Shown in pieces: positions 28,537 through 28,621 of a stretch of DNA of 64,000 nt. Each line of letters starts with the position of its first letter. Position 1 is the first letter of the stretch. The stretch is taken from sequence record PQ567651.1. The stretch is one strand, 5' to 3'. The notes under the pieces are model-generated. The model saw only the letters and a program-made list of their open reading frames with translations. It did not search any database and was not told the origin of the DNA. The DNA comes from Escherichia phage cardinal. Both the position numbers and the translations under genes were made by a program.

Positions 28537-28621
28537 TGGCGATGGATCAAGGATTTGAACCTTGCTAGAACTTTCGTTCACGGATTAACAGTCCGTCGCC
28601 CAACCACTAGGCCAATCCATC
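28537..28621 (-). tRNA. class II (long variable arm) tRNA with anticodon GUU (Asn-type) - unusual combination
   Basis: Perfect acceptor GATGGAT/ATCCATC, anticodon arm ACGGA-CTGTTAA-TCCGT, variable-arm hairpin GAAC-GAAA-GTTC, T-arm CAAGG-TTCAAAT-CCTTG. Confidence 0.45.

Follow-up and report, generated by a model that had tools for sequence, protein, structure and literature searches.

A tRNA-Asn with a long variable arm in Escherichia phage cardinal and related phages: predicted identity and possible purpose of the arm

A 64,000-nucleotide (nt) stretch of DNA from Escherichia phage cardinal (sequence record PQ567651.1; the whole stretch is called the window here) contains, on its minus strand at positions 28537-28621, a tRNA gene that joins an anticodon for asparagine, GUU, to a variable region long enough to form an arm of its own. 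Textbooks and reviews restrict such arms to the tRNAs for Ser, Leu, Sec and bacterial Tyr, where they serve as a mark of synthetase identity (PMC4033280, PMC7609411). The locus raises the question of which amino acid this tRNA carries, and what its arm is for. A preliminary description of the sequence had recognized a class II-type scaffold with an Asn-type anticodon, and suggested a mis-decoding tRNA, a recently mutated Ser or Tyr tRNA, or a sequencing variant; the unusual combination stands, with a D arm nearest to those of Ser tRNAs, but none of the three explanations has found support. The gene very probably encodes a genuine Asn-decoding tRNA with a selected extra arm, and the explanation as a whole, in which asparaginyl-tRNA synthetase (AsnRS) would charge this tRNA-Asn and the selected arm would have the purpose proposed below, is in our judgement probable.

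The gene and its predicted identity

ARAGORN calls the gene as tRNA-Asn(gtt), 85 nt including an encoded CCA. It passes the threshold of the Rfam tRNA model (RF00005) over the full model (positions 1-71; 56.5 bits against a gathering score of 29), the alignment placing the surplus nucleotides as an insertion in the variable region, and its minimum-free-energy fold is a cloverleaf with an added GAAC/GUUC hairpin capped by a GAAA loop (-29.5 kcal/mol, z = -2.57). These results agree with the preliminary description on an 85-nt tRNA with a variable-arm hairpin, the strand of which it had left unstated, and the ARAGORN call and the sequence likewise bear out its anticodon loop, CUGUUAA, centred on GUU. 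Reading from its 5' end, the RNA comprises the acceptor strand GAUGGAU (28615-28621; pairs G1:C72, A2:U71 and U3:A70), the dinucleotide UG, the D arm GCCU-AGUGGUU-GGGC (28598-28612), a single G, the anticodon arm ACGGA-CUGUUAA-UCCGU (28580-28596) with the anticodon itself at 28587-28589 (AAC on the plus strand), the 15-nt variable region GAACGAAAGUUCUAG (28565-28579), the T arm CAAGG-UUCAAAU-CCUUG (28548-28564), the second acceptor strand AUCCAUC (28541-28547), the discriminator G73 (28540) and CCA (28537-28539). The layout is a 7-base-pair (bp) acceptor stem, a 4-bp D stem and a 5-bp anticodon stem, in the canonical 7/5 acceptor/T-stem arrangement. These elements were assigned from the sequence, together with pair counts for the D arm, the T arm and the 3' acceptor strand, and with D-arm statistics of class I and class II tRNAs. 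The D stem includes C11:G24 and U13-G22, and its 7-nt loop lacks nucleotide 17. The extra arm begins at position 44 and consists of the 4-bp GAAC/GUUC stem, the GAAA tetraloop and an unpaired 3' UAG, so that the variable region exceeds the 10 nt, with a stem-loop of its own, by which class II tRNAs are defined. The core typical of that class, with a 3-bp D stem, an unpaired 13:22 and an extended beta region, is absent from the window copy, which has a 4-bp D stem, U13-G22 and a beta region of 2 nt.

BLAST recovered the 85-nt gene at 100% identity from 52 phage records, of phi92-like phages, and gave no match in E. coli genomes, so that an origin as a copy of a host gene can be dismissed. Less similar copies are carried by Klebsiella phage KP13-26 (93% identity), Citrobacter phage Tr1 (86%), the Seunavirus Salmonella phages SSE121 and NINP13076 (about 85%), phAPEC8-like members of Phapecoctavirus (about 75%) and the T5-like Providencia phage PSTCR5. 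When eight diverged homologues from five phage groups (93% to about 74% identity) were aligned, the GTT anticodon, the entire CTGTTAA loop and G73 proved invariant. The preliminary description had proposed that GUA or GCU in relatives would reveal a polymorphism or an error; neither occurs in any of the eight, and the GUU is real. Bases pair in 99.5% of the cells of this alignment, and 14 of 25 pairs show changes on both sides, a result matched by none of 500 shuffles; when the structure was slid along the alignment as a control, only 30-51% of cells paired. Compensatory change affects all five helices, including 5 of the 7 acceptor pairs and 3 of the 4 pairs of the extra arm. Several records named as Campylobacter phages (host C. 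jejuni; MG065639, MG065645, MG065656, MG065689 and others) are 97-100% identical to E. coli Justusliebigvirus or Phapecoctavirus sequences here, and these names probably reflect mislabelling or contamination.

The identity of E. coli tRNA-Asn resides in the three anticodon bases and G73, a set transplantable into tRNA-Lys, and G73 acts as an antideterminant against the leucyl and tyrosyl enzymes (LeuRS and TyrRS); the identity of tRNA-Ser lies in the variable arm, tertiary structure, G73 and an acceptor stem in which, in E. coli, G1:C72 and G2:C71 are absolutely conserved, while the seryl enzyme (SerRS) pays no heed to the anticodon (Giege and Eriani 2023, PMC9976931). The AsnRS set is complete in the window tRNA (G34, U35, U36, G73). 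With E. coli tRNA-Asn (asnT/U/V/W), the reference sequence of which is found at 100% identity in 5425 of 5426 E. coli genomes, it shares GUU, the CUGUUAA loop, G73, G26 and 16 of 17 anticodon-arm nucleotides, the exception being A27 for G27; Q34 and t6A37 are expected from the sequence context, as in the host tRNA, and the phage tRNA is a predicted substrate of AsnRS. The host tRNA differs in being of class I, with a 5-nt variable loop (AUGUC), U1:A72, U8-A9 and a GUUC/GAAC D stem, where the phage tRNA has its 15-nt hairpin region, G1:C72, U8-G9 and a GCCU/GGGC D stem without nucleotide 17.

The determinants of the other candidate enzymes are largely missing. G73 and U36 replace the A73 and GUA of Tyr identity, and G73 the A73 of Leu identity. 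As to Ser, G1:C72 is present, A2:U71 stands in place of G2:C71, U3:A70 is not a purine3:pyrimidine70 pair, and the arm, with 4 bp and three unpaired 3' nucleotides, has a Tyr-like layout instead of the Ser-type 5-7 bp with 0-2 unpaired; G73 and C11:G24, both found in Ser tRNAs and both present here, are common to Asn and many other tRNAs and do not discriminate. Unique tRNA sequences from the same phage contigs as the long-arm family described below served as internal controls (105 long Asn, 38 short Asn, 74 Ser, 44 Tyr and 55 Leu). Long Asn tRNAs have G73 in 90% (95/105), U1:A72 in 53% and a mixed 2:71 pair (G2:C71 in 38%), closely matching short Asn tRNAs (G73 in 97%, U1:A72 in 55%, 2:71 mixed) and not Ser (discriminator mixed, G2:C71 in 96%, A3:U70 in 78%), Tyr (A73 in 91%) or Leu (A73 in 95%). 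When the Ser features were scored, an arm of at least 5 bp was found in 84 of 120 Ser tRNAs and 6 of 105 long Asn tRNAs, at most two unpaired 3' nucleotides in 111/120 and 11/105, and the full set of acceptor determinants and Ser-type arm in 33/120 and 0/105. Given the identity nucleotides, the acceptor profile, the anatomy of the arm and the lack of any family member with the full Ser set, we predict from the published E. coli identity rules that AsnRS charges the window tRNA, that TyrRS and LeuRS reject it, and that charging by SerRS is unlikely. Host AsnRS would thus attach asparagine, and the tRNA would read AAC and AAU codons normally.

The long-arm family

Relatives of the gene are distributed well beyond the phi92-like phages. 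BLAST with the PSTCR5 copy gave matches in 697 phage records, and long-arm members are found in Stephanstirmvirinae, Vequintavirinae, T5-like Demerecviridae (83 nt; AKFV33, Stitch and IrisVonRoten, the last being Bas32), T4-like Straboviridae of Klebsiella, Enterobacter, Serratia and Erwinia (about 85 nt) and more than 100 metagenomic viral contigs. A pattern made of the Asn anticodon loop, 19-30 nucleotides and the T-loop motif was scanned against IMG/VR and against 185,579 cellular genomes. ARAGORN calls a tRNA-Asn(gtt) of at least 80 nt in 105 of the 120 viral matches listed, nearly always in multi-tRNA clusters, and in 10 of the 120 cellular loci listed. By inspection, about five of these ten resemble archaeal intron-containing tRNAs, three lie within phage-like arrays of 11-17 tRNAs in 8 kb or less, and one belongs to an Asn-Tyr-Lys trio like that of the window. 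With the spacer relaxed to admit normal tRNA-Asn, the long form made up 11 of the 120 viral loci listed, about 9%; both scans are samples of the matches listed, and their percentages are indicative and no census. By the same indicative measure, the long-arm tRNA-Asn family is essentially restricted to phages. A gut Bacteroidota assembly of Prevotellaceae (ONYP01000013.1, locus L187) has a long tRNA-Asn at 6162-6250 followed by Tyr and Lys(UUU), in a gene order like that of the window, which suggests that the grouping of these isoacceptors recurs far beyond enterobacterial phages.

Family statistics rest on the 105 unique long tRNA-Asn(gtt) among the viral matches listed. Of these, 86 satisfy a strict cloverleaf check that demands an arm of 3 bp or more. 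Native variable regions fold at -2.79 kcal/mol against -0.62 for their own shuffles (Wilcoxon p = 4e-17), and the arms comprise 56 different complementary stem pairs; this per-sequence shuffle test was used in place of a covariance model built from the eight homologues, which was unspecific and matched all tRNAs (482 matches). The loop CTGTTAA is present in 103 of the 105, a count to be read with the fact that the scan pattern itself demanded it. Variable regions differ in length (11-22 nt) and in sequence, and yet their geometry recurs: the stem has 3-4 bp in 82/94 arms, 3-4 unpaired nucleotides follow it in 81/94, and the loop is GNRA in 60/94 (64%). Ser arms mostly have 5-7 bp, with 0-2 unpaired 3' nucleotides in 114/121 and GNRA loops in 48/121, and Tyr arms about 3 bp, with three unpaired in 41/62.

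The long-arm tRNAs resemble bacterial class II tRNAs (Ser, Leu, Tyr) in the arm with its stem-loop and in G9, and the short stem followed by three unpaired 3' nucleotides is the layout of phage tRNA-Tyr, from which they are distinguished by their GNRA loops (0/62 in Tyr arms). Many members, but not the window copy, also approach the class II core, which is mixed in the family: 31% of members have G13-A22, and in 46% the beta region of the D loop is 4 nt long, against 3% of short Asn tRNAs. They depart from class II tRNAs in having the Asn anticodon and discriminator, in lacking the A73 of Tyr and Leu, and in lacking the G2:C71, A3:U70 and 5-7 bp arm of Ser. The short extra hairpin, of 3-4 bp, usually with a GNRA loop and 3-4 unpaired nucleotides after it, is very probably a selected feature of this large phage tRNA-Asn family.

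Extra arms are not confined to Asn. Among the IMG/VR loci (L008-L127 and L248-L356) they were seen also on Ile, Met, Thr, Cys, Trp, Lys, Asp, Glu and Pro tRNAs, and not on those for Gly, Gln, Phe or Val; the discriminators of these class I tRNAs are, among the examples listed, mostly the usual base of the isotype. Such arms are carried by 6.0% of tRNAs in contigs with a long tRNA-Asn and by 2.0% in contigs with the short form only (p = 8e-4), and tRNA-rich loci that have them number 34 of 69 and 2 of 30, respectively (odds ratio 13.6, p = 3e-5), p-values that are optimistic since the contigs lack phylogenetic independence. Klebsiella phage KP13-26 and Citrobacter phage Tr1 each have an 89-nt tRNA-Glu(UUC) with a GAAA-looped arm (locus L001, 2305-2393, GUAG-GAAA-CUAC; locus L002, 2770-2858, GAGG-GAAA-CCUC), a second class I isotype with a variable arm in the same phage subfamily; ARAGORN called no tRNA-Glu in the window. 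The converse is also seen, in that 66 unique tRNA-Leu calls in phage loci have a variable region shorter than 9 nt (for example, the 77-nt Leu(tag) at 2291-2367 of locus L003) and represent a class II isotype without an arm.

Purpose of the arm, rival readings and ancestry

The part of our explanation that is weakest concerns the purpose of the arm, for which we propose, tentatively, protection from host nucleases. Among E. coli tRNAs, the PARIS nuclease AriB attacks Lys(UUU), Thr(UGU) and Asn(GUU); it cuts tRNA-Asn at 40|41 and needs further contacts at D-loop U16-U17, and the Lys, Thr and Asn tRNAs of phage T5 together neutralize PARIS (PMC12409363). The window tRNA lacks nucleotide 17. The cut lies three nucleotides before the point at which the arm emerges. 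In the window, Lys(UUU), Asn(GUU), Thr(UGU) and Tyr tRNAs are consecutive genes, and these are the isoacceptors targeted by AriB and by PtuAB. The long-arm tRNA-Asn thus resembles known nuclease-evading phage tRNAs (T5 Lys, Thr and Asn against PARIS AriB; T5 and SP15 Tyr against Retron-Eco7 PtuAB) in being an isodecoder of a targeted host tRNA, structurally different from it and adjoining genes for Lys(UUU), Thr(UGU) and Tyr tRNAs. Evasion as described relies on point substitutions in the anticodon loop, anticodon stem or D loop (PMC12409363, PMC11464382, PMC11555353, PMC10264068); the long-arm family departs from this in keeping a host-like anticodon arm and adding an arm to it, and its evasion is putative. 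An added arm might allow the phage to retain the anticodon arm needed by AsnRS, by Tgt (Q34) and by the t6A37 enzymes and still alter the overall shape of the tRNA, so that host nucleases which read the body near the anticodon stem, such as AriB, would bind it poorly. Such shielding is possible but stands well below even chances. More doubtful still is the wider proposal that variable arms on class I tRNAs are a widespread phage counter-defence, sterically shielding the anticodon stem and core from AriB, TOPRIM, PtuAB and OLD-type nucleases, with Asn the commonest case and other isotypes armed in the same genomes; Asn is not mentioned in the preprint on the P2 OLD tRNase.

T5 itself has a short, class I tRNA-Asn(GUU) of 78 nt (locus L357, 7953-8030; NC_005859, 33952-34029), and for this reason the T5 rescue experiments say nothing about the long arm. 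The anticodon stem of this tRNA, GCAUC/GUUGA, has non-Watson-Crick pairs at 27:43 and 30:40, around the AriB site, and is a different escape design from that of the long-arm family of other T5-like phages.

Several observations speak against the reading of the window tRNA as an AsnRS substrate with a protective arm. It has G1:C72 in place of the bacterial consensus U1:A72, a GatCAB determinant present in E. coli tRNA-Asn, and with Ser tRNAs it shares G73, G1:C72, C11:G24 and a Ser-like D arm. When 40 body positions are compared, leaving out the anticodon arm, variable region and discriminator, the best outside neighbours of the window lineage are Ser tRNAs at 0.78 (top-five mean 0.72), short Asn tRNAs following at 0.75 (0.66); the Ser-leaning similarity appears to stem from the U8-G9-GCC...GGC D arm. 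Because of these shared nucleotides, the D arm and the Ser-like nearest neighbour of the body, some cross-charging by SerRS is possible. Class II synthetases approach the tRNA from the side of the variable region, and an extra arm could in principle hinder AsnRS itself. U1:A72 is not among the listed AsnRS determinants (PMC9976931). As to the shield, the window tRNA fully keeps the sequence of the AriB site, U36-A-A-U-C|C41, and if the arm fails to block AriB it would therefore be as vulnerable as the tRNA of the host. A conventional short tRNA-Asn(GUU), likewise with G73, is present in 32 of 104 long-arm contigs, often adjacent to the long one; coexistence of the two fits diversification against nucleases, and equally some different role. 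In the literature we found no aminoacylation, expression or nuclease data for the long-arm tRNA-Asn. Phage Bas34, whose own tRNA-Asn is insufficient against PARIS according to the PARIS study, was considered as a proxy for the long arm; Bas34 is SelmaRatti (MZ501103), its tRNA-Asn is of the short form (77 nt), and it proved uninformative.

The alternative that survives best, while still unlikely, is that the arm is a neutral passenger, a hairpin insertion with no function of its own, tolerated by AsnRS, EF-Tu and the ribosome, in which pairing is kept for the sake of folding and which has been spread by mobile tRNA clusters. The heterogeneity of the arm in length and sequence is what such an origin would leave, AsnRS identity lies in the anticodon and position 73, remote from the variable region, and compensatory changes prove upkeep of the helix, not its usefulness. 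Phage tRNAs also often drift from isotype models: in phage Sf14, tRNAscan-SE isotype scores were often at odds with the anticodons, and 13 of 26 tRNAs were inconsistent (PMC12482277). A passenger of this kind is harder to reconcile with an arm retained over very deep phage divergences in a recurring geometry (3-4 bp in most, and GNRA loops that are lacking from Tyr arms), with the strong enrichment of viral over cellular loci among the matches listed, with the many members in which the D arm is remodelled towards a class II core, with the coexistence of long and short Asn tRNAs as old paralogues, and with the clustering of other armed class I tRNAs in the same contigs.

Less probable again is a handle, that is, an arm recognized as a tag by a phage protein and no passive shield; the protein might process, modify, repair or protect the tRNA, or might be a nuclease by which host tRNAs are destroyed and tagged phage tRNAs spared. 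Several class I isotypes armed in the same genomes would be expected of a shared trans-acting partner, the Klebsiella and Citrobacter relatives bear a similar GAAA-capped arm on tRNA-Glu, and GNRA loops are enriched in the long Asn arms. GNRA tetraloops are common docking motifs for both proteins and RNAs. Against this, no candidate protein was identified, the neighbourhood encoding mostly hypothetical proteins; the window has such an arm on its Asn tRNA only; the family spans unrelated groups (phi92-like, T5-like and T4-like) with few genes in common; and the co-occurrence of armed isotypes could stem from shared ancestry of the contigs.

There is little to commend the proposal, raised in the preliminary description, of a mis-decoding tRNA, in which a class II scaffold read by SerRS (or TyrRS) would put Ser or Tyr at Asn codons in the manner of the nematode variable-arm tRNAs known as nev-tRNAs. 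These are class II-type tRNAs with class I anticodons, conserved within their lineage, as is the phage family; they have Gly or Ile anticodons and Leu-type identity, are charged with Leu and mis-decode, and are eukaryotic and weakly expressed (PMC3333845, PMC4033280). The precedent, the indifference of SerRS to the anticodon, the features common to tRNA-Ser (long arm, G73, G1:C72, C11:G24), the marginal nearness of the window copy to Ser bodies, and the separate short tRNA-Asn beside the long one in a third of phage contigs would all accommodate it. LeuRS and SerRS disregard the anticodon (PMC9976931 for SerRS), whereas for AsnRS it is the main identity element; the phage genes, unlike those for nev-tRNAs, sit in phage tRNA operons, and the body has no identity set that an anticodon-blind LeuRS or SerRS would recognize, Ser and Leu determinants being absent. 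Since the anticodon is an AsnRS identity element and class II synthetase determinants are missing, cognate charging is predicted here, unlike for nev-tRNAs. Mis-decoding is unlikely, then, because the full and conserved AsnRS set is present, G73 acts against TyrRS and LeuRS (U36 also disfavours TyrRS), and the near-universal G2:C71 of Ser tRNAs, a purine3:pyrimidine70 pair and a Ser-type arm are all lacking, with no complete Ser set in the family. ARAGORN found no second Asn tRNA in the window, where Asn codons make up 5.5% of open reading frames (ORFs) of at least 150 amino acids (AAT 32.9 and AAC 21.9 per 1000), and the gene is kept without change in the 52 records. A Ser-bodied GUU tRNA does seem to exist elsewhere: an alphaproteobacterial metagenome-assembled genome (contig CAWBON010000023.1, locus L193) has at 3976-4064, on the minus strand, a lone 89-nt tRNA with this anticodon, the body of which is of Ser type by eye (acceptor strand GGAGGUG with G1:C72, G2:C71 and A3:U70, a UGGCCGAGCGGUCAAGGC D arm, a variable arm of about 6 bp, G73 and CCA). 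Unlike the phage family, that tRNA is plausibly a Ser-charged reader of Asn codons, to judge by its sequence.

That the gene is a pseudogene is hardly credible, and a recent mutation of a Ser or Tyr tRNA or an error of sequencing or assembly is excluded, even with an anticodon loop one base from those of Tyr (CUGUAAA) and Ser(GCU) type, a Tyr-like arm layout and a similar arm on the phage's own tRNA-Ser(GCU), since the sequence is identical in 52 independently sequenced phages and every aligned diverged homologue keeps GTT, all helices being intact and CCA encoded.

The tRNA-Ser(GCU) of the window has a similar GAAA-capped 4-bp arm and matches the tRNA-Asn at 5 of 7 positions in each acceptor strand, but by hand count from the alignment the two share only about 26 of the 40 body positions, and no Tyr tRNA in the data set exceeds a body identity of 0.65. 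On these values we rejected the idea that the gene arose recently from the Ser(GCU) or Tyr tRNA of the phage itself. Across the family, the nearest outside group on the same 40 positions is short Asn for 34 of 107 members, Ser for 15 and Tyr for 6; for short Asn tRNAs, in turn, the long ones rank second in nearness. Tandem duplication was rejected as well: long and short Asn tRNAs of one contig score 0.55 against 0.49 for random pairs, so that they are not recent duplicates and represent old, separately maintained isodecoders. The sequences accommodate two histories, one in which an arm was added to an Asn tRNA whose core then adapted, and one in which the starting point was a class II tRNA, converted long ago.

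The tRNA cluster and comparison with known systems

The long-arm tRNA-Asn can be compared also with allo-tRNAs and selC*-type tRNAs (PMC5389517, PMC7609411), which are likewise non-canonical, have a long variable arm and an unexpected anticodon, and are partly of phage or metagenomic origin. Their acceptor/T-stem arrangements are 8/4 or 9/3 and their identity elements are those of Ser or Ala, in contrast to the 7/5 arrangement and Asn identity elements here. A prior description of a phage tRNA-Asn with a variable arm was not found in a literature search that lay outside the older subscription-journal papers on T5 and BF23 tRNA sequencing, and the design appears to be undescribed. GenBank annotators already label the long-arm genes as tRNA-Asn; this annotation needs no correction, and isotype-mismatch flags on such genes are no sign of recoding.

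A conserved, covarying arm on an Asn tRNA is thus present in hundreds of sequenced phages, including relatives of T5, T4, phi92 and rV5, and together with the tendency towards arms on other class I tRNAs it implies that amino-acid identity does not fix whether a tRNA belongs to class I or class II. Should AsnRS indeed charge the long-arm tRNA, the added arm must be tolerated by a class IIb synthetase, by EF-Tu and by the ribosome, which would be useful in the engineering of tRNAs that are tagged or orthogonal. Should the arm give protection from tRNA-cleaving defence systems, it would constitute a second, structural route of evasion beside point mutations, and help to explain the retention of tRNAs by phages.

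The window derives from a Justusliebigvirus of the phi92-like group (Stephanstirmvirinae); compared with Escherichia phage muut, the region tested shows 99.8% identity. The gene lies in a co-oriented cluster of 16 ARAGORN-called tRNA genes on the minus strand (26928-29796), supported also by the muut annotation and by promoter-like sites on the same strand, and flanked by the terminase region and a nicotinate phosphoribosyltransferase gene. Its neighbours, in consecutive order, are Lys(UUU) at 28721-28795, Tyr(GUA) at 28629-28715 and, beyond tRNA-Asn, Thr(UGU) at 28383-28457; the spacers from Lys through Tyr to Asn measure 5-7 nt.

The cluster also includes an unannotated tRNA-like RNA at 29345-29423 on the minus strand, which scores 38.6 bits with the Rfam tRNA model, was missed by ARAGORN and has no annotation in phage muut. 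It combines a 7-bp acceptor stem, a near-invariant UAUCUCA linker in place of the D arm, an anticodon loop CUUCUAA (anticodon UCU, for the Arg codon AGA), a variable segment of 23 nt that includes a small hairpin, an ordinary T arm, G73 and a CCA encoded in the gene, and is preceded by the best promoter-like site of the cluster. It is conserved in 258 phage records, covering phi92-like and FelixO1-like phages, Sugarlandvirus, Mydovirus, jumbo phages and one Vibrio phage, where it is nearly always without annotation or labelled 'tRNA-OTHER'. Covariation is seen in both its acceptor stem and its anticodon stem, with 95.2% paired, a result reached by none of 500 shuffles. AGA accounts for 12.6 per 1000 codons in the window ORFs, and ARAGORN found no canonical tRNA-Arg(UCU) in the window. 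Three further members of the cluster may be degenerate or unusual CAU tRNAs: two ARAGORN calls of tRNA-Met(cat), at 27244-27319 and 29721-29796 (minus strand), fall below the Rfam tRNA threshold, and a third Met(cat) call, of 79 nt at 27150-27228 (minus strand), has its anticodon at position 37 and a phAPEC8 homologue annotated as 'tRNA-Pseudo-CAT'.

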